A stretch of DNA of 64,000 nucleotides from Candidatus Bathyarchaeota archaeon (lineage in GTDB: Archaea > Thermoproteota > Bathyarchaeia > Bathyarchaeales > Bathyarchaeaceae): contig SOJZ01000031.1 of NCBI GenBank assembly GCA_004376295.1, forward strand, positions 12,624 to 76,623. The letters are read 5' to 3'. Both the position numbers and the translations under genes were made by a program. Shown here piece by piece: positions 22,231 to 32,772 of this stretch (positions are counted from its first letter, which is position 1; the number at the start of each line of letters is the position of its first letter). The notes under the pieces are model-generated. The model had not been told where the DNA came from. It was given only the letters and a program-made list of their open reading frames with translations, and searched no databases.

Positions 22231-22815
22231 TCATTTGATATGCAAGTCTTCTAAGGAAAGTTCTCTTTCCAAGGCTGAAAGAAGAGTTAATGTTTCTTCA
22301 TGTCTTCTTTTCGCAATCTTTTTTGCAGTTTCGGTGTTTAGCAAAGGATAAATGGCTTTCAATTCTTTGAAAGAACGCTTAACAACCAAGTCAAATGGTG
22401 TATTGCCAAACCAATGAAATGCTCTAACCACACCCAAAACTCCTAGTATGTCGATCTTGTCAGCGTCCCAAACTATTCTCTCTTCTAAGGTTTCTAGTTT
22501 ATCCCTAAAATCAAGATCATGATTGAGCACTATCTTGGTTACCTTTTCTCTCCTTTCTTTAGGATACTTGATCTCTTTCAAGACCTCATTAGCCAATTTA
22601 GCTCCAGTTTCGTGATGTGGTTTACCAACAGTCCATCCAACATCATGTAGAAGGGCTCCTATTTGAACTAGTTCTACATCTGCATTCTCTTCTTTAGCCA
22701 GAAAAGTTGCTGTCTTGAAGACTCTTTTCACATGCTCGAAAGAATGAACACTATCTTTAATTGATGCCATCTTCTCTTTTACAATACTTTCAAGATTCCC
22801 CAATGAAAAACCCAT
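22231..22815 (-). CDS. HD-domain metal-dependent phosphohydrolase
   Basis: 194 aa; HSFEHVKRV ... GALLHDVGW (H...HD signature). Confidence 0.8.
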   Translation of the reverse strand: MGFSLGNLESIVKEKMASIKDSVHSFEHVKRVFKTATFLAKEENADVELVQIGALLHDVGWTVGKPHHETGAKLANEVLKEIKYPKERREKVTKIVLNHDLDFRDKLETLEERIVWDADKIDILGVLGVVRAFHWFGNTPFDLVVKRSFKELKAIYPLLNTETAKKIAKRRHEETLTLLSALERELSLEDLHIK

Positions 22816-23571: not shown

Positions 23572-24336
23572 GTGGCTGTAAACTTGAAGATTTTGAAATT
23601 GTCAGGAACTTACCTGAAAAGAAAAGCGTACCAGTACTTAATTTTAGGGATTTTGTGTCTATTTGTCTTTGTTGCCATATTTCTTACCACTGACCCAAAA
23701 TTGCCTCTTTATATTGACCTAGGGCGGTACCACACCACTCGTGTGTTAGTAATGATATTTCCGCTATATGGGGTGCTCCGTTTCTACCGGTTGCATCGTG
23801 CCTACCAGCAAGGCTTTGAAGGAGAAAAACAAGTTACCAAAGTTCTTTCTTCAACTTTGAGCGACGACTATTTTCTCATCAATGATGTTCAGCTTGTTGC
23901 GGGTAAAAGAAGCAACATTGACCATGTTGTTCTGGGACCAACCGGAATATTTGTATTGGAAACCAAAAACCACAGTGGCAAGATTACTTGCTATGGTGAT
24001 AGTTGGACAGGTATAGGTCAAAACCCTTCTACACAGGCACGAGTCAACGCTTCGAGAGTCTATAAGGTCATTAGGGCTTCTGGAATCTTTGTATCAAAAC
24101 TTCCATGGATTCAAGCGGTTGTAGTTTTCGCTAACAAAAAAGTAGAATTAGAAGTGCGCAAAGCCCCATCCAAGGCTAAAGTTCTAAAGATTGTTGAATT
24201 GACCAATTACATAACCCAAGAAACAACACGTCTATCCGCTCAAGAAATTGAGTTAATGAGCAAGGAGATTCTAAACATGCACGAATGTGGGGGGTTAAAT
24301 TTTAATCCAACCAACCAACCAACCAAGACGGAATAA
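23572..24336 (+). CDS. Membrane-anchored NERD (nuclease-related domain) protein
   Basis: 254 aa; 2 N-terminal TM, then GEKQVTKVL...IDHVVLGPTGIFVLETKNHSG. The last 13 codons lie in direct repeat R1. Confidence 0.75.
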   Translation: MAVNLKILKLSGTYLKRKAYQYLILGILCLFVFVAIFLTTDPKLPLYIDLGRYHTTRVLVMIFPLYGVLRFYRLHRAYQQGFEGEKQVTKVLSSTLSDDYFLINDVQLVAGKRSNIDHVVLGPTGIFVLETKNHSGKITCYGDSWTGIGQNPSTQARVNASRVYKVIRASGIFVSKLPWIQAVVVFANKKVELEVRKAPSKAKVLKIVELTNYITQETTRLSAQEIELMSKEILNMHECGGLNFNPTNQPTKTE

Positions 24337-25450: not shown

Positions 25451-26155
25451 CTAATAAACGCGCTCGGGCTTTGGATGCCCAAAGCCGTGCTTAGCGAATA
25501 ATTTCTCATTGACTGCGTTGTATAGTGCTATCTCTAGTACCGTGGAAATAGCTTGAAGAAATTCCACAGCTTCATGCTTGACGCCGCAGATATCACATGG
25601 TCTATCATGATCTGGGAAGAATCTCTTTTTGTCACCTTTCTTGCACTCTTCAATCACCAAATCAATTGTTTGTGCCCACTTTTCTTTCAATTCCGAAACG
25701 GCCTTTTCTATTATGGGATCGATAGCGTCCGTAAAATCCTGAGCCACAAAGGACTGTCCAAAAGGGACTTCCTCAACATAAATACGAGTTGCAGTTCCAA
25801 TAAGCTCGATTCTTTCTGGTTTGCCGTGGACAATGACTTCTCTGTATTTTTCCTCTGTCTTCTTTTTCCCTGGATGTTTTTTGGGAGGTCTTCGGCTTTC
25901 CACCCACGAAGCATCTTGACTTGGACCCTCTAAGAACTTAATAGCCCCATAAACAGTGTTTTTTGAAAGGTTCAGTTGTTTCATCATCTCTTTAGCTGTA
26001 AGACCAGCACTTCCCGCATCTCTCAAGGCTTCTATAATCTCCCAGTTTGTACGGGAACCTAGCGCCCTCGCCTCCCTGTAGTCTGTAACTGGAATGGAGA
26101 GGAAATAACGGTTCATCTTCTTTTCTTTCGATGCCAAGTGAATCACGTTTCCCAT
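25451..26155 (-). CDS. Winged-helix (ArsR/TrmB-like) transcriptional regulator
   Basis: 234 aa; NWEIIEALRDAGSAGLTAKEMMKQLNLSKNTVYGAIKFLEG; divergent from a chain of small plus-strand ORFs. Confidence 0.6.
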   Translation of the reverse strand: MGNVIHLASKEKKMNRYFLSIPVTDYREARALGSRTNWEIIEALRDAGSAGLTAKEMMKQLNLSKNTVYGAIKFLEGPSQDASWVESRRPPKKHPGKKKTEEKYREVIVHGKPERIELIGTATRIYVEEVPFGQSFVAQDFTDAIDPIIEKAVSELKEKWAQTIDLVIEECKKGDKKRFFPDHDRPCDICGVKHEAVEFLQAISTVLEIALYNAVNEKLFAKHGFGHPKPERVY

Positions 26156-27323: not shown

Positions 27324-27484
27324 TGTATGCATGCGCGCTACGGGGCTATGGAGCCATTTTAGGCGATCTTATGCGCGCAATAAGAGTTTCGACAACAATT
27401 CTGAGGGCTTCCTTCGCATATTCGCTGACTCTTGCTGATAACTTCTTTTTCAACATTTTCTTTCCGCGGGCGCGCGCCTAGATG

Positions 27485-29800
27485 TTACGATTCAGGATAT
27501 AAAATATCATAGCGGACGTCGAATCTTTTTTTCTCTTTCTTACGTGGTGTAAAGTATTGGAATAAAGTAGATGGAATCGGTAGGAATACGGAGTTCTTTA
27601 AGATTACCGTCATAGTCTCGTAACTATGCCCACCTGGAGGAATGGACAGTAACTCGTTAAGTTGTATGTCATAATAGAAACCAAAAATGCCAGCGGCATG
27701 ACGAAATATATAGATGATTCTTTGACCGCCCCATATCATCTCTGTAAAATGAGGCTGAAAGAAGAAATCTGCTCTGTCAACATACGCCTTATCTGATAAT
27801 CGTAGAAGACCTTTAAAGCCATACATAATCTCCGAATCGTCCAATACTAGTATCTTTGCCTCTGTCTCAACATCGGATCTATGCAAAGCTGGTTTTGCTT
27901 CAAAAGCAGAATAGCTTACATCCTCACTTTCAGATTGAGATCTTATTAGCACTCGTTGACTCTCTACAATATCAGGCATAACGGACGCTACCGTTTGTAT
28001 GTCTTGGATCGAAACCACTTGTTGCTGTTTCTGAGCTGCCACGAGTGCTGCATCAATAGCTTTAGAAAACGTAGTTTTCCCTTTTACGAAGTCTGCAATG
28101 ACATCATCCAACCGCTTAATTTCAGTAACATCGTATTCGAATACATCTCTTTGTCGTCGCAACCTTTTCAAGAACGCTTCAGCTCCTTCTCTTGTACTAC
28201 TTGGCACAAGATGTGATATACGTGGAAAAACGATCGTCCGTACAAAGTCTTTAGTGAACTTATTGAATACAACGAAGTCTGAGTTGTAGCATTGAAGAAG
28301 ATTCTTTATGGCAGTATTATTCGAATCTAGTGTCAAAATGGGAGGTTTCACATCATCCTTAATTAATAGAGATAGATTATGTGTGATTCGCCCAAATTGT
28401 ACCTTGACCTTTAGAAAATAATCAGATTCAAGAATTTGCCCCAACTTAAATGCTAATGCTGCTTCTTCTCTATTCCAAGCAGTTTTTGGCTGAACCTTGA
28501 GAACCTGTGGTTCGCCAGATACTAAAGATGCTTTGGTGTATCGTGCTAGATATTCCACTTCACATCGAGCGCGTGGATTACTCCGAGAGATACGAATTAA
28601 GGGTGTTTCCTCCGACGTGAATGCACTAGCAACACTTTCATCCACGCCCTTGTAATAATTGATATGAAGTTTAGTTGATAAATCCCCAATTTCCTTAAGG
28701 GTTGTTTTCTTATCCGTTGGAAGTAGAGCGACTTTCAGGTTTCCAAGAAGCTCGTATCTGTTCCGCTTGGCTGCCCAGCCCATGAAGGAGGTGTTCATGT
28801 CTACATATGGGGAATCTGCAATAATTGGGGCTATCATTTGTTCTGCAGAAGATACAAGTGACTGAAGCACTTGAACACTAGCAGCCGTCAGAGATTCGCG
28901 TCCTGCAGTTGGTTGAAGGACTTCCAAGTTAGCCACTCCACCAAATGAATAACTCGAATATACCCCTGTTCTTGCAAGACCAAAACCACTCGTGAATGCC
29001 ATTATCTGCCCTATTCCTTGTTTTAGCAAAACTCGCCCTTTAATTGGGTTCTCATTTAATATGATGCTATCCATTTCGATCCAGACAATACCACTCTCCG
29101 AAATTCGGAACTTCAGGTTACATTCACATGAATCAGCTTTGATTTTCTTAATATCACGTGACCAAGCTGCACCTCCTTCAGGCGGACAAGACTCTTCTAG
29201 AGGGTGCATACTTGCTAGAGTTCCATTTATGTACACAGGTATTGGCAAATGTTTCACGAATGTTTCAAGATAGTTTGTTGCCCCAGCAATATCGATAATG
29301 TGATCAGAAAGTAATTCCGCAATAACCTTGGTTCCCGGTTCATTAAGTGGTGCAAGATTTTCTTCAGAGATACAATCTTCTTCCAGCGAGAGTGTGTCTC
29401 GATTAGCTTGACATTTTGTTCGAATATTATTACTAGCAGACTCACTAATGACCGTGAGCTTCCGGCAAATGCCAAAATTGGCGAGACCTCCTATTCCGAA
29501 AGTTCCCACAACTCCTGCAGCTATAGCTTCAGGGGTATTCTTGCCACTCGCACCTGCACGCCAAAAATGATTTTTAAGTTCCTCTGGCGTCATCCCGATT
29601 CCGTTATCTGTGACGTCTATAGAGTTAGCTGAAATCTTTACATCTATTCTGGGGGAAAATGTCTCGGGGCTTCGATATCTTCTCACTAAGATTGCATCAT
29701 AGGCGTTTTGAACATTCTCTCTTAGTAGAGCGTAAGGTGAATCGTAAATCTTAGTCGAAAGTACCTCTAATATCTTTGTTACTTCAATTTGGAATTTCAT
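27485..29800 (-). CDS. Hsp90-like GHKL (Bergerat-fold) ATPase with about 600-aa uncharacterised C-terminal region
   Basis: 771 aa; motif I RENVQNAYDA, motif II DNGIGM, motif III GTFGIGGLANFG. The ATG is 1 nt after the stop of the upstream gene. Confidence 0.85.
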   Translation of the reverse strand: MKFQIEVTKILEVLSTKIYDSPYALLRENVQNAYDAILVRRYRSPETFSPRIDVKISANSIDVTDNGIGMTPEELKNHFWRAGASGKNTPEAIAAGVVGTFGIGGLANFGICRKLTVISESASNNIRTKCQANRDTLSLEEDCISEENLAPLNEPGTKVIAELLSDHIIDIAGATNYLETFVKHLPIPVYINGTLASMHPLEESCPPEGGAAWSRDIKKIKADSCECNLKFRISESGIVWIEMDSIILNENPIKGRVLLKQGIGQIMAFTSGFGLARTGVYSSYSFGGVANLEVLQPTAGRESLTAASVQVLQSLVSSAEQMIAPIIADSPYVDMNTSFMGWAAKRNRYELLGNLKVALLPTDKKTTLKEIGDLSTKLHINYYKGVDESVASAFTSEETPLIRISRSNPRARCEVEYLARYTKASLVSGEPQVLKVQPKTAWNREEAALAFKLGQILESDYFLKVKVQFGRITHNLSLLIKDDVKPPILTLDSNNTAIKNLLQCYNSDFVVFNKFTKDFVRTIVFPRISHLVPSSTREGAEAFLKRLRRQRDVFEYDVTEIKRLDDVIADFVKGKTTFSKAIDAALVAAQKQQQVVSIQDIQTVASVMPDIVESQRVLIRSQSESEDVSYSAFEAKPALHRSDVETEAKILVLDDSEIMYGFKGLLRLSDKAYVDRADFFFQPHFTEMIWGGQRIIYIFRHAAGIFGFYYDIQLNELLSIPPGGHSYETMTVILKNSVFLPIPSTLFQYFTPRKKEKKRFDVRYDILYPES

Positions 29801-29801
29801 C

Positions 29802-31307
29802 CTATCGTCCTCTCCTTATGGCAATTCTTCTCTCTGCTTTTACCCTCTTTTCTAGAGCATCTATGAATCCTTTGTCATAAGTTAGTGTATCTCTCTTACA
29901 CTCCGAAATTGTTTGGTCCGCAGAATCAAATTTTCCCTTCTTACAGAGGGCATCCACAACAATACTAAGTTCGTTTGGATTCCTGGGTTTCCGAATTAAT
30001 CCTATCAGATCATCCCATCTCCCAAGTTCATACAAACACTCGGTCAACAGTCTATTGACAATCGGAATGTCATCTGGCAGTTCTGCCAACAAACCGAGGG
30101 CTTCATTATATTTCTTCTCCCTCATGTATAATTCGGCTTTCTCTAACGAGGGTGAGATTTCAGACAAGACCTTTTTCCTCCTTTGTGCTATTTCTCGAAG
30201 TAAGGGAAGATCCATTTCATACCAACTCTTACCACCAAATTCTTGGAGTTTTGCGGAGGTGAAGCTAGTATTACTGAACCACTCCCTAACATGAATCTTT
30301 ACTTTATAATCTGTTTCATCTATTTCAATTAGGTTATATTGTCTTCGATACCCTGAAGGAATCGCCTGCGGATCTGCACAGAGAGAACCTGCTGAGATTA
30401 TCGGCATAAAACGTTCAGGATTCAAATGGTATGCATAAGAAACGATATTGCTTTTATGTTGGTGACCATGCAGCCCTAGAACATATCCACGGTCGATTAG
30501 CAAGGGTAATACTTCTTTGCGATTTAAGTGATCGATGTTATACTCTGAACTCTCTAAACCGTGATGCCAAAAGGCAATTTTTAAAGGAATATTGTTCAGT
30601 GCTGATTCTCGAATCCGAAGCCCGTTTCTAGCGACGTTGTCGGTAAAGATTCTGCCACGATGATCGTAACAATCATTTCCGTATAGTGAACTGAATCCTG
30701 TAAGCATAGCTCTGCGATCCGAAGTAACAAAATTGACTGCTTGTTCATTATTTTCAAGGCTGAACTTATAACCTTGCATTTTGTAGAAATCATCAAAGAA
30801 CTCTTTGAAATACTTGAGCCGTGATTTATAGAGGTCAAAATCTTTAATCCGATAAAGCTGTAGATCCTCCAAAGAAAGGCGATATGGGCTGTTTGCACCT
30901 CTTAGCAGTTCAGAGAGATTTTTTCGACCATTGGCTTCTACACACTCCATGGATTGTCTGCAAAGTTGCCAACACACATCATGATTGCCAGGCACTACAA
31001 AAACTCTACTAAGATCTCTATCAAACAATTCATTACTTAACTGAATCAAGAACCCTTTGGCCTCTTGATATTGCTTAGCTAAAGTTTCAGAGACATTAGT
31101 GTCGGTGATCGGTGCTCCACTGATGAGATCACCGGTTACTACAACGACATCACATTTTTGTATAGCTGGATTTTCATGTTGTTGTTTCTCCAAATCTAAA
31201 AGCAAACATGATAAAAGCATGTCATTAGACACAGGTGCATTTTGCGATCGATGTAAATCGGATAGGTGAAGGATTGTAAGCACGGAGCCCACGCTCTTCT
31301 CGCTCAT
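29802..31307 (-). CDS. Calcineurin-like metallophosphoesterase with C-terminal TPR-like helical domain
   Basis: 501 aa; ILHLSDLHRS, VVVTGDLISG, VVPGNHDV, AFWHHGL, LGLHGHQHKS (all canonical phosphoesterase motifs). Helical repeat tail ...YNEALGLLAEL...LYELGRWDDLIGL... Confidence 0.85.
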   Translation of the reverse strand: MSEKSVGSVLTILHLSDLHRSQNAPVSNDMLLSCLLLDLEKQQHENPAIQKCDVVVVTGDLISGAPITDTNVSETLAKQYQEAKGFLIQLSNELFDRDLSRVFVVPGNHDVCWQLCRQSMECVEANGRKNLSELLRGANSPYRLSLEDLQLYRIKDFDLYKSRLKYFKEFFDDFYKMQGYKFSLENNEQAVNFVTSDRRAMLTGFSSLYGNDCYDHRGRIFTDNVARNGLRIRESALNNIPLKIAFWHHGLESSEYNIDHLNRKEVLPLLIDRGYVLGLHGHQHKSNIVSYAYHLNPERFMPIISAGSLCADPQAIPSGYRRQYNLIEIDETDYKVKIHVREWFSNTSFTSAKLQEFGGKSWYEMDLPLLREIAQRRKKVLSEISPSLEKAELYMREKKYNEALGLLAELPDDIPIVNRLLTECLYELGRWDDLIGLIRKPRNPNELSIVVDALCKKGKFDSADQTISECKRDTLTYDKGFIDALEKRVKAERRIAIRRGR

Positions 31308-31484
31308 TTTGAAATCTTCCAGTAATCGTACGCTTGAGTATGAGTGTTCGCTATTAACACATGATGCCTTTCAAAATATATATTTGCATGCTTGCATCAC
31401 TACTCTACCTACAAAACTACGGAATCTATCAGCGGTAAAGACACCAGAGGAATTTTGAGCTAACCAGCTAACAAGTGTTTATCT

Positions 31485-31785
31485 TTTTGGACTCTTCTAT
31501 TTTGGCTGAAATGGTGACTAGACGGTCTTTTTTTCACTATGATTTGACACTATTTTGGACTCTATCAGAGCTAGTAGAATAAATATTTTACTGGTCTACG
31601 CTGGTCTACAGTTGATTTTATATTCTAATGGTCTTTCCAATGGATATTCTATTAAAAGAAGCTCAATTCGGGGTTTTACACTATACTGAAATAATGCTAA
31701 ATTTTTCCATTCTTTTATTTTCGTGTGTAATGTTGGTCTACCATTACTTTTTTTAATAGATGTTCTGTTAGCACTTTGTTAGCAC
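31485..31785. repeat. Cluster of short direct repeats inside a ~960-bp ORF-free AT-rich region (31308-32271)
   Basis: ctggtctacg/ctggtctaca tandem at 31591-31610. tggtct variants at 31521-31530, 31627-31636 and 31733-31742. ttttggactct at 31485 and 31553. tgttagcac x2 at 31766-31785. Confidence 0.6.
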
Positions 31786-32271
31786 CGAATCTAACAATTA
31801 ACATAGTTTAATGGGCTTTTTTGTGTTCATGAATATACCTATCATCATATTCGTCTGGCCCAGTCTGCAAATATATCACCTTATAAAACTATGATGGTGG
31901 TTTTTTCTTAAATCTTAGTGCACACATTTTTCTAGCATCTTCCCTTTTTCTGGAAACCAAAAAAGTAGGTTAATTATCTGGTCGATTACAGGTAACGCCT
32001 TCTTGTTGCCTGTGGAAAGAAATGATATCAATAACTGTTTCTAGATAAACAATCGCCAAAAACGCAATTGCCAATGTAGCAATCGAACCACTATCCGTAT
32101 ACTAAAATGAGAAAAAACTAATTTAAGATATTTTATCAGAAAAAACCATGAAAGAGCCGTTTTGAAATTACGCCGTTAAAACTTTCTAATCAATGCAATA
32201 AATGGGTGGTAAAGAAGTGAAGGTATTATAAAATGGCCTCTGCATGTATGCAAGTGTAGAATAGAGTTAAT

Positions 32272-32772
32272 CTACCATGTTTCTATAAGCTCTGCCAAGT
32301 ATTTTAGACCGAAGGGTTTAGCGACAAATCCCTTAAGGCTGACTAGCATGTTCTCGCTGCCTTCTATGAGCTCGCCAAGTTCTGCCTTAAGATCATTTAT
32401 GAACAGGTCATACTCTGCGTAGCTTCTGTGCAAAGAGATCATTACAGCATCCTTTCCCATACCTTGAGCTTTTGAGGCAAATATAATGTTAGGATGTTTA
32501 TTCAACCATTTTTGTCCCTTCTCAATCAGTTCTTTTGATCTTGGCACCTTGTAAACGCCCGTGGTAATAGCCATGATTTCAAATCCTATCTTAGCGAAGT
32601 CGGGGATGATCGTGAAGTCTCTTATGGTTCCATTCTTCACAAGCTTACTTCTCGTTCTGGTTACAGTTGGCTGTGACACTCCAACAAGCTCTGCTAGTTT
32701 CCTATCACTCTTCTTGGAATCCTTTAGCAATTCCACAAGAACCTTTTTCATTACCTTTTTCATCAGCATCAC
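32272..32772 (-). CDS. Lrp/AsnC-family transcriptional regulator
   Basis: 166 aa; HTH LAELVGVSQPTVTRTRSKLVKNGTI plus a C-terminal RAM-like domain. Confidence 0.8.
   Translation of the reverse strand: MMLMKKVMKKVLVELLKDSKKSDRKLAELVGVSQPTVTRTRSKLVKNGTIRDFTIIPDFAKIGFEIMAITTGVYKVPRSKELIEKGQKWLNKHPNIIFASKAQGMGKDAVMISLHRSYAEYDLFINDLKAELGELIEGSENMLVSLKGFVAKPFGLKYLAELIETW

Follow-up and report, generated by a model that had tools for sequence, protein, structure and literature searches.

The anti-phage systems DS-8 and DS-9 protect Escherichia coli against phages, and the residues of their metallophosphatases are needed for this protection (PMC13092281). When triggered, the DS-9A enzyme (MisA/PUA-Cal) converts NAD+ into NMN and AMP (bioRxiv 10.1101/2025.11.05.686725), and a second study of PUA-Cal reported a cascade that depletes dNTPs, in which (d)NDP is converted into (d)NMP, and also observed NAD+ cleavage in vitro (PMC12871103). 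In DS-8, catalytic and NTPase mutants both lose defence (PMC13092281). The term Calcineurin-CE, used here for the clade of these enzymes, goes back to Nicastro, Burroughs, Iyer and Aravind (NAR 2023), as far as its citation in PMC12871103 indicates. GHKL ATPase activity has also been tied to immunity, being required in the fused GHKL-Shedu protein VcSduA, where the substitution E27A abolishes defence (PMC12137116). Here, we analyzed a 64,000-nucleotide stretch of DNA (the window) from a Candidatus Bathyarchaeota archaeon (contig SOJZ01000031.1, positions 12,624 to 76,623), in which two adjacent minus-strand genes encode a calcineurin-like metallophosphoesterase and a divergent Hsp90-family ATPase. 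We read the pair as a mobile two-gene conflict module, antiviral or directed against mobile elements, and give this defence reading as a whole a probability of about two in three. It is based on synteny, co-evolution, variable flanks rich in mobile and restriction-modification genes, the relationship of the phosphoesterase to an anti-phage clade, and the swapping of effectors among distant relatives.

The two open reading frames, of 501 and 771 amino acids (aa), were found on the minus strand as in the preliminary description of this DNA, which was made from the letters alone. The features of the operon are as follows.

29802–31307, minus strand: putative effector gene, for a calcineurin-like (Calcineurin-CE-type) metallophosphoesterase of 501 aa whose C-terminal tail is helical and TPR-like (open reading frame, Pfam, AlphaFold2 (AF2) model).
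30210–31283, minus strand: catalytic alpha/beta-sandwich domain of the phosphoesterase, aa 9–366 (invariant columns, DS-9A/DS-8 alignment, AF2).
29808–30206, minus strand: C-terminal all-helical TPR/PPR-like domain, aa 368–500, a proposed docking or regulatory module (AF2, weak Pfam matches, HHalign).
29798–29820, minus strand: gene junction, with Shine-Dalgarno-like GGAGAGGA, effector TAG, 1 nt, ATPase ATG (sequence).
27485–29800, minus strand: putative sensor/switch gene, a 771-aa divergent Hsp90-family GHKL ATPase (open reading frame, HATPase_c_3, fold).
29201–29800, minus strand: Hsp90-type ATP-binding N-domain, aa 1 to ~200 (invariant columns, PDB alignments, AF2).
27488–29200, minus strand: middle and C-terminal region of the ATPase, aa ~200–771 (AF2, fold-level similarity to the Hsp90 middle and C-terminal domains).

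On the coding strand the junction was GGAGAGGACGA-TAG-g-ATG, so that the single nucleotide between the phosphoesterase stop codon and the ATPase start codon, already noted in the preliminary description, could be read directly. The Shine-Dalgarno-like GGAGAGGA lies 5' of the ATPase start, and this element and the 1-nt junction therefore indicate translational coupling of the two genes. Both proteins were 100% identical to proteins of a Candidatus Bathyarchaeota metagenome-assembled genome (MAG).

We scanned 185,579 species genomes, one genome per species, and obtained 245 relatives of the ATPase, of which the best 80 loci were fetched. A phosphoesterase homologue was located immediately upstream on the same strand in 79 of these 80 loci, and the lone exception was interrupted by a contig end. 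The two genes overlapped by 4 nt in most of the loci, compared to the 1-nt spacing in the window. The 80 loci spanned the Bathyarchaeia and at least 14 bacterial phyla. The pairwise identities of the two proteins were correlated (r = 0.94, 2,556 pairs), including among distant pairs (r = 0.79). No third conserved gene was found beside the pair, and the flanks were unrelated between genomes, even among the Bathyarchaeia. The pair is a strict co-evolving two-gene module, with homologues conserved as neighbours, and forms one operon, as had been supposed from the window alone.

To follow the ATPase beyond this family, distant full-length relatives with identities of ~25–40% were drawn from metagenomes. 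These Hsp90-like ATPases kept a co-directional, overlapping upstream gene, the type of which varied by subfamily. The upstream partners (loci L083–L122, L123/L124, L126, L127 and L131) included the following.

Divergent Metallophos proteins of ~590 aa, some of which carry a TPR tail.
A protein of 542 aa that contains a PNP_UDP_1 nucleosidase domain (L131, with an ATPase ~25% identical to that of the window).
A 434-aa DUF4062 protein, a 641-aa Metallophos protein and a 260-aa protein with no assigned family.

When a profile of the window-family tail was compared with the C-termini of these partners using HHalign, the PNP protein matched at 84% (E = 7.5e-6), the 641-aa Metallophos protein at 57% and the 260-aa protein at 54%. 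A helical tail shared in this way is a plausible docking module. Conflict systems typically combine one unchanging NTPase with enzymes that can be swapped, and the comparison therefore points to the ATPase as the sensor or switch and to the upstream gene as the effector. The preliminary description had proposed an NTP-driven sensor with a phosphoesterase effector, or the reverse; the former is well supported comparatively, and the direction appears resolved, with a constant ATPase and a variable effector. In the window, the phosphoesterase appears to occupy the effector position beside the NTPase of a conflict-type operon, exchangeable with PNP_UDP_1, DUF4062 and other Metallophos proteins. 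Together, the distant Hsp90-like loci make up a wider family of Hsp90-switch systems.

The family of the window was sparse and rare, with 251 representatives at E <= 1e-30 among 1.84 billion, and identities of ~40% were found between Archaea and many bacterial phyla. The pair was carried by three conjugative Pseudomonas aeruginosa megaplasmids and one Rhizobium plasmid, as well as by three viral or proviral contigs of IMG/VR, where it lay by a serine recombinase, an nSTAND3 NTPase and a Mu-type transposase. The copy on the P. aeruginosa plasmid pPUV-9 had an ABC-three-component system at a distance of 3 kb, with IS21, an integrase and Fic also in its vicinity. The families seen most often among the 144 genes directly beside the pair were DNA methyltransferases (9) and recombinases or integrases (~7). 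Horizontal transfer has spread the module across Archaea and at least 14 bacterial phyla.

Several of these loci showed further details. The ABC-three-component genes of pPUV-9 (L081:3708-7359), encoding a DUF3732 protein, a middle component and an ABC-3C protein, were upstream of the pair; YaaC and MvaT were also nearby, forming an accessory/defence island on this conjugative megaplasmid. On the plasmid of Rhizobium sp. 007 (NZ_CP064189.1), the phosphoesterase upstream of the Hsp90-like gene appeared truncated (a 459-bp open reading frame was annotated) and was adjoined by IS21, and 10 kb downstream of the Hsp90-like gene there was a Metis/DS-9-like pair annotated as 'metallophosphoesterase' and 'HAD-IA hydrolase' (L082:24935-26292). 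Among the viral or proviral contigs, the nSTAND3 NTPase gene and the Mu-type transposase flanked the pair in L166 (4138-5871, 15328-17610), and the large serine recombinase was in L165 (3515-5215). In L062 (6614-9984), the phosphoesterase gene was split by an insertion of ~1.5 kb with a 419-aa open reading frame. In L023, L036, L051 and L057 it was split into two open reading frames, which could be due to frameshift, decay or MAG error. An alphaproteobacterial MAG (L011:9907-14708) contained two more GHKL-like open reading frames (522 and 506 aa) 7 and 10 kb downstream of the pair.

The phosphoesterase of the window contained all five motifs of calcineurin-like phosphoesterases that had been listed for it, SDLH (16–19), TGDL (58–61), GNHD (107–110), WHHG (247–250) and GHQH (281–284), and its metal ligands D17, H19, D60, N108, H109, H248/H249, H282 and H284 were invariant in 52 homologues. 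The Pfam family Metallophos matched the 501-aa protein with E = 3e-15, and HATPase_c_3 matched the ATPase with E = 1.3e-11, both as had been expected. The AF2 model of the phosphoesterase had a predicted local distance difference test score (pLDDT) of 92.9 and a predicted TM-score (pTM) of 0.85. The TPR-like helical tail that had been suspected was recovered in the model, in which aa 368–500 were all-alpha with seven helices; Pfam TPR/PPR matches on the tail were weak and all below curated cut-offs, and designed PPR proteins of the PDB matched it at E = 1e-7.

Among the NCBIfam models, DS9_1_antiphage ("anti-phage phosphoesterase", DS-9A) matched 52 of the 52 homologues (best 8e-19) and the DS8 model matched 48, while other metallophosphoesterase models barely registered, the next best being the PolD small subunit (11/52) and SbcD (2/52). 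The window protein scored 43 bits against a cut-off of 420 with the DS-9 model, over profile positions 195–299 only, and 30 bits against a cut-off of 790 with the DS-8 model. It is not a DS-9A equivalog, because its score is so far below the DS-9 cut-off. We aligned the family to the DS-9A and DS-8 sequences of the DefensePredictor supplement, and the alignment reproduced the published catalytic residues D207/H209, D255 and N367. It also contained a non-canonical [LF]-N-[ST]-[CA] motif, which was ALNSC in DS-9A, TLNTA in DS-8 and AAFNSC in the window-family consensus, and which corresponded to F205-S206-S207 in the window protein; the Asn of the motif is the substrate-recognition Asn367 of ECOR28 PUA-Cal (PMC12871103). 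In the fold search, the top PDB match was Bacillus subtilis YydB; the nucleotide phosphodiesterases Lmo2642 and Rv0805 came next, and Mre11 ranked 11th or lower. By these comparisons, the phosphoesterase appears to belong with the Calcineurin-CE clade, as represented by DS-9A/MisA/PUA-Cal and DS-8, and thus with a nucleotide-targeting clade and not with Mre11/SbcD.

The fold matches included the cyclic nucleotide phosphodiesterases Rv0805 and Lmo2642, and DS-8 has been compared with the cGAMP phosphodiesterase SMPDL3A (PMC13092281). The pair could accordingly be a signalling-nucleotide phosphodiesterase module, serving as the regulator or off-switch of another pathway or, as its carriage by plasmids and proviruses would also allow, as an addiction or stabilisation module of mobile elements. 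We regard this as very improbable. No nucleotide cyclase or other signal generator was conserved beside the pair, the module is self-contained with two genes, relatives swap the phosphoesterase for PNP or DUF4062 effector-type domains, and the member of the clade that has been characterised breaks down bulk nucleotides (PMC12871103; 10.1101/2025.11.05.686725).

The ATPase contained the Bergerat motifs ENVQNAYD (28–35), DNGIG (65–69) and GTFGIG (99–104), which were not only intact, as first reported, but also invariant in the family; the invariant residues of the N-domain were E28, N32, D35, D65, G67, G69, M70 and G99–G104. Its best NCBIfam matches were "HSP90 family protein" (4e-24) and HtpG (1e-16), compared to ~1e-3 for MutL models. 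The bit scores were 85 against a cut-off of 455 (PRK14083) and 60 against 371 (HtpG), with the matches confined to residues 2–222, and because these scores are far below the curated HtpG cut-offs the ATPase represents a separate family within the Hsp90 superfamily. A family-profile search of the PDB retrieved the N-domains of HtpG, Grp94 and TRAP1 (up to 4e-16). The AF2 model of the ATPase had a pLDDT of 82.4, with low values at the ATPase lid (83–103), and contained a helical bundle at 496–624 followed by a beta-rich C-terminal part at 650–767. At the sequence level, no similarity to the Hsp90 middle and C-terminal domains was detected, and a PDB search with a sub-profile of residues 200–440 was empty. 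Foldseek aligned the model with full-length HtpG, TRAP1 and Hsp90 over ~600–690 columns (E ~1e-22, TM ~0.44/0.53). Because the fold aligns with full-length Hsp90s, the 600 aa in which no domain could be named before are mostly an Hsp90-like middle and C-terminal region. An invariant P297-T-A-G-R301 loop (PTAGRE) precedes a long helix, and R301 could correspond to the Arg of the Hsp90 catalytic loop (cf. R380 in yeast and NVSRE in E. coli HtpG). By its full-length fold, the ATPase is a real but divergent relative of Hsp90.

With both proteins placed, a restriction-like system that targets DNA can be weighed, in which a MutL/MORC/BbrUII-like DNA clamp would act with a Mre11/SbcD/PolD-DP1-like nuclease to cut invader DNA. 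PADLOC gave partial, weak matches for the pair: PDC-S60 over the catalytic domain (4.8e-14), 'Effector endonuclease' on the phosphoesterase (7.7e-12), REase_II on the ATPase N-domain (2e-4) and TmtA (7e-3). The second and third of these would fit a restriction-like system, as would the match of the ATPase N-domain to the BbrUII/HgiDII restriction-enzyme model (1.8e-10), the PolD and SbcD matches of a minority of phosphoesterase homologues and the DNA methyltransferases among the neighbours. It nevertheless seems rather unlikely. The Hsp90 models score far better than MutL on the ATPase and the whole-protein fold is Hsp90-like, all 52 phosphoesterase homologues prefer the DS-9A/DS-8 models, the characterised member hydrolyses free nucleotides (PMC12871103), the fold matches after YydB are nucleotide phosphodiesterases with Mre11 lower, and nucleotides are the target of the other effectors, such as PNP. 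Neither a DNA-binding domain nor an SbcC/Rad50 partner could be found for the pair. Two specific candidates were ruled out: a MORC/paraMORC/MutL-type ATPase, on the NCBIfam scores and on the top fold matches, all of which belong to the Hsp90 family, and an SbcCD/Mre11-Rad50 nuclease, on the SbcD count, the fold rank of Mre11 and a partner that is GHKL and not SbcC/Rad50. The MORC/MutL-like and SbcD-like analogies of the preliminary description were therefore replaced by an Hsp90-type ATPase and a phosphoesterase of a nucleotide-targeting clade.

An Hsp90-type ATPase also raises the alternative of a non-immune chaperone and co-chaperone pair, in which the ATPase would handle clients under stress and the phosphoesterase would be a PP5-like protein phosphatase acting on the chaperone or its clients. 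PP5 combines a calcineurin-fold phosphatase with a TPR domain that keeps the enzyme autoinhibited until Hsp90 is bound. The full-length Hsp90 fold and the Hsp90-type N-domain motifs fit this alternative, the TPR-like tail on a calcineurin-fold phosphatase recalls the eukaryotic PP5-Hsp90 couple (8gae was among the fold matches), and some flanking genes are housekeeping genes. We consider it improbable in view of the sparse, patchy and horizontally transferred distribution with ~40% identity between Archaea and many bacterial phyla, the occurrence on conjugative plasmids and proviral contigs with variable flanks, and HtpG scores that fall well short of the curated cut-offs. The nearest relatives of the phosphoesterase are nucleotide hydrolases of anti-phage systems, not PPP protein phosphatases, and the exchange of the partner for PNP nucleosidase and DUF4062 domains is unexplained by a co-chaperone role.

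Under the preferred reading of a conflict module, we propose the following mechanism, each step of which we hold less likely than the defence reading as a whole. The two proteins would be made in a fixed ratio and form a complex, in which the TPR-like C-terminal domain of the effector may dock on an Hsp90-like dimer, as TPR co-chaperones such as PP5 do on Hsp90. The divergent middle and C-terminal region of the ATPase would recognise an infection cue, probably an invader protein or an aberrant 'client', and the cue would drive an ATP-dependent clamp cycle that releases the phosphoesterase. The released enzyme would then deplete NAD+ and/or (deoxy)nucleotides, so that virus replication stops by abortive infection or dormancy. 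A bolder proposal, which we regard as possible but doubtful, is that an Hsp90-family ATPase acts as a sensor of innate immunity in both archaea and bacteria, detecting a viral 'client' or a disturbance of proteostasis. Its clamp would release a TPR-docked nucleotide-depleting enzyme, its interchangeable effectors (Calcineurin-CE, PNP, DUF4062) would share one docking tail, and the whole would be a prokaryotic counterpart or forerunner of the eukaryotic control of immune receptors and phosphatases by Hsp90 and TPR co-chaperones, with an exact architecture and archaeal members that are not known to have been described before.

A number of observations weigh against the defence reading. Many flanking genes in other genomes were ordinary housekeeping genes (singletons), and no homologues were found in isolated phage genomes or in 5,426 complete E. 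coli genomes. The tail match between effector types is moderate, because TPR-like helical repeats can match spuriously. HHalign comparisons with E. coli HtpG, global and local, were not significant, and the R301 motif was not paired with the HtpG motif. At the position of the substrate-recognition Asn of DS-9A, which was present in 32 of the 52 family members, the window protein carries Ser206 (GFSSL). The closest enzyme has been the subject of two studies, which differ on whether NAD+ or dNTP/dNDP is its physiological substrate. A full-text literature search found no experimental study of any Hsp90-like and effector pair, and no model of PADLOC-DB v2.0.0 (2023) or NCBIfam 2026 recognised the pair as a named system. 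In the window itself, PADLOC gave domain-level matches only and no complete known system adjoined the pair. The window's own neighbourhood is only weakly defence-like, and the case for a local "defence island" around the pair is weak. There is also no clear compositional island. The GC content of the pair was 0.407 compared to a window mean of 0.419, so that the pair is not clearly more AT-rich, as had been thought, but only marginally so; the GC content at third codon positions (GC3) was modestly lower, at 0.34–0.36 versus ~0.40–0.50 in housekeeping genes. The pair as a compositional island was ruled out on these values.

The surroundings of the operon in the window were also inspected. The ORF-free region of about 960 bp noted beside the pair was confirmed upstream of the operon.

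31308–32271, no strand: AT-rich non-coding stretch of 964 bp (longest open reading frame 49 aa, GC 0.335, no Rfam match).

Intergenic regions of archaea are seldom of this length. The stretch presumably holds the promoter of the operon, and it may contain that promoter, a decayed gene or an RNA; no structured RNA was found by Rfam in this gap or around the operon. The pair had been described as bounded by GCGCGC/ATGCATGC tracts. GCGCGC tracts were indeed present at 27333, 27373 and 27470, but the motif was over-represented across the whole window (14 sites versus 4.4 expected, with none of 100 shuffles reaching 14) and is enriched at many gene ends, and for this reason it does not delimit the pair. 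The sites included 24367, 25004, 27333, 27373, 27470, 39355, 41106, 45506, 45548 and 54521; nearly all in the window were at gene ends or in intergenic DNA, with no longer motif in common. GCGCGC may be a genome-wide punctuation, a terminator-like signal or a restriction-related one. No direct or inverted repeats were found flanking the pair, and GCGCGC/ATGCATGC tracts as boundaries or insertion scars were ruled out on the same grounds.

Of the neighbours named in the preliminary description, HD (22231–22815), NERD (23572–24336) and winged helix-turn-helix genes (25451–26155 and 32272–32772) were real, while no PD-(D/E)xK gene was found near the pair apart from NERD. The HD (194 aa) and NERD (254 aa) proteins stand alone, 3–5 kb from the pair. 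The NERD domain at 23572–24336 is similar to the NERD domains in PglW and MkoA, and GC3 in the region was lowest for the HD gene (0.31). HD and NERD of the window formed no recognisable known system, with PADLOC giving domain-level matches only, and none of the NERD, HD or helix-turn-helix neighbours of the window was conserved beside the pair in other genomes.

If the defence reading is true, an Hsp90-type clamp ATPase would be a new class of switch in prokaryotic immunity, beside STAND, ABC, AAA+ and MORC-type NTPases, and its sensor may read protein-level cues as a chaperone reads clients. Defence by nucleotide depletion (Metis/PUA-Cal-HAD, DS-8) would then extend to a further type of trigger and to archaea. 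The question bears on how Hsp90-like machines became wired to immune effectors, including the Hsp90-dependent control of immune receptors in plants and animals. The system would be tractable, with two genes, clear point mutants and interchangeable effectors that share a tail. E. coli-centred screens have not sampled the family because it is absent from E. coli, and it is also missing from current defence-finder libraries. For specialists in the comparative genomics of immunity the pair will be no surprise, but a strong candidate with an unusual chaperone-type sensor.

In 2023, Nicastro, Burroughs, Iyer and Aravind reportedly predicted HSP90-/HSP70-related modules as analogues of STAND/GTPase modules coupled to Calcineurin-CE and other nucleotide-targeting effectors, in systems where the effectors are mixed and matched. 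If so, the kind of system was probably already predicted computationally, and the synteny, the clade of the phosphoesterase and the effector swapping seen here reproduce that prediction independently. The term "undescribed" first applied to the pair is then probably wrong, although neither PADLOC 2023 nor NCBIfam 2026 names it. The public annotation of the two genes is only "metallophosphoesterase" and "ATP-binding protein", and a full-text search found no paper describing a defence pair of an Hsp90-like protein and a metallophosphoesterase. DefensePredictor (2026; Fig. 6F/S13A) displays an unvalidated predicted 'purine phosphorylase + TPR + HATPase' system, which, matched by its description, is probably the PNP_UDP_1 variant (L131). 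That variant has another effector domain than the pair of the window, and its ATPase belongs to the more distant subfamily (~25% identical).

Like the pair of the window, Metis/DS-9/PUA-Cal-HAD (MisA-MisB) is a two-gene operon with a calcineurin-like effector of the same clade. The metal ligands of DS-9A and the window effector can all be aligned, as can the region of the clade-specific N-S-C motif, in which the window protein has Ser in place of the Asn. Metis/DS-9 has an N-terminal PUA-like m6dAMP-sensing domain, whereas the window phosphoesterase has no PUA domain, for which there is no room because its catalytic domain starts at residue 9, and has a TPR-like tail instead. The partner in Metis/DS-9 is a HAD-family phosphatase, while that in the window is an Hsp90-like ATPase, with no HAD gene in the operon. 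DS-8, a single metallophosphatase-NACHT protein, has a related effector under an NTPase switch, the logic proposed here for the pair. Its switch is a fused NACHT (P-loop STAND) NTPase, in contrast to the separate GHKL/Hsp90-type ATPase of the window, where the phosphoesterase has no P-loop or NACHT domain and its C-terminal part is helical and TPR-like.

The best match of the whole effector, YydB of B. subtilis (PDB 9a6c, an integrative YydD-YydB model; E = 9.5e-19, 548 columns, 16% identity), is a metallophosphoesterase of 481 aa whose binding partner is encoded nearby. The structure gives a hint that phosphoesterases of the YydB type work as partner-bound effectors in another system based on an ATPase. 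Unlike the partner in the window, YydD is not an Hsp90-like ATPase. We take YydD to be the ABC-type ATPase of an ABC-three-component system. The Hsp90-PP5 couple resembles the pair in joining a calcineurin-fold metallophosphatase with a TPR-type domain to an Hsp90 ATPase. The TPR domain of PP5 is N-terminal and binds the MEEVD tail, and PP5 is a PPP protein phosphatase, whereas the window tail is C-terminal and attached to an enzyme of a nucleotide-targeting clade, and the window ATPase lacks EEVD, its C-terminus being ...DILYPES. Convergence probably accounts for the resemblance, which serves as a mechanistic analogy, not as evidence of homology.

VcSduA/paraMORC3-Shedu and SLFN-pAgo-GHKL likewise require a GHKL ATPase for defence, which has been proposed to gate the effector (PMC12137116 for VcSduA), and the Shedu study raised the possibility that misfolded proteins are sensed by Hsp90-like N-terminal domains. 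In VcSduA and SLFN-pAgo-GHKL, one polypeptide of the MORC/paraMORC type also contains the nuclease or Argonaute effector, whereas the window encodes two proteins, an Hsp90-type ATPase and a phosphoesterase. The pair is a real, well-delimited and probably defensive module, and an archaeal member of a predicted kind.

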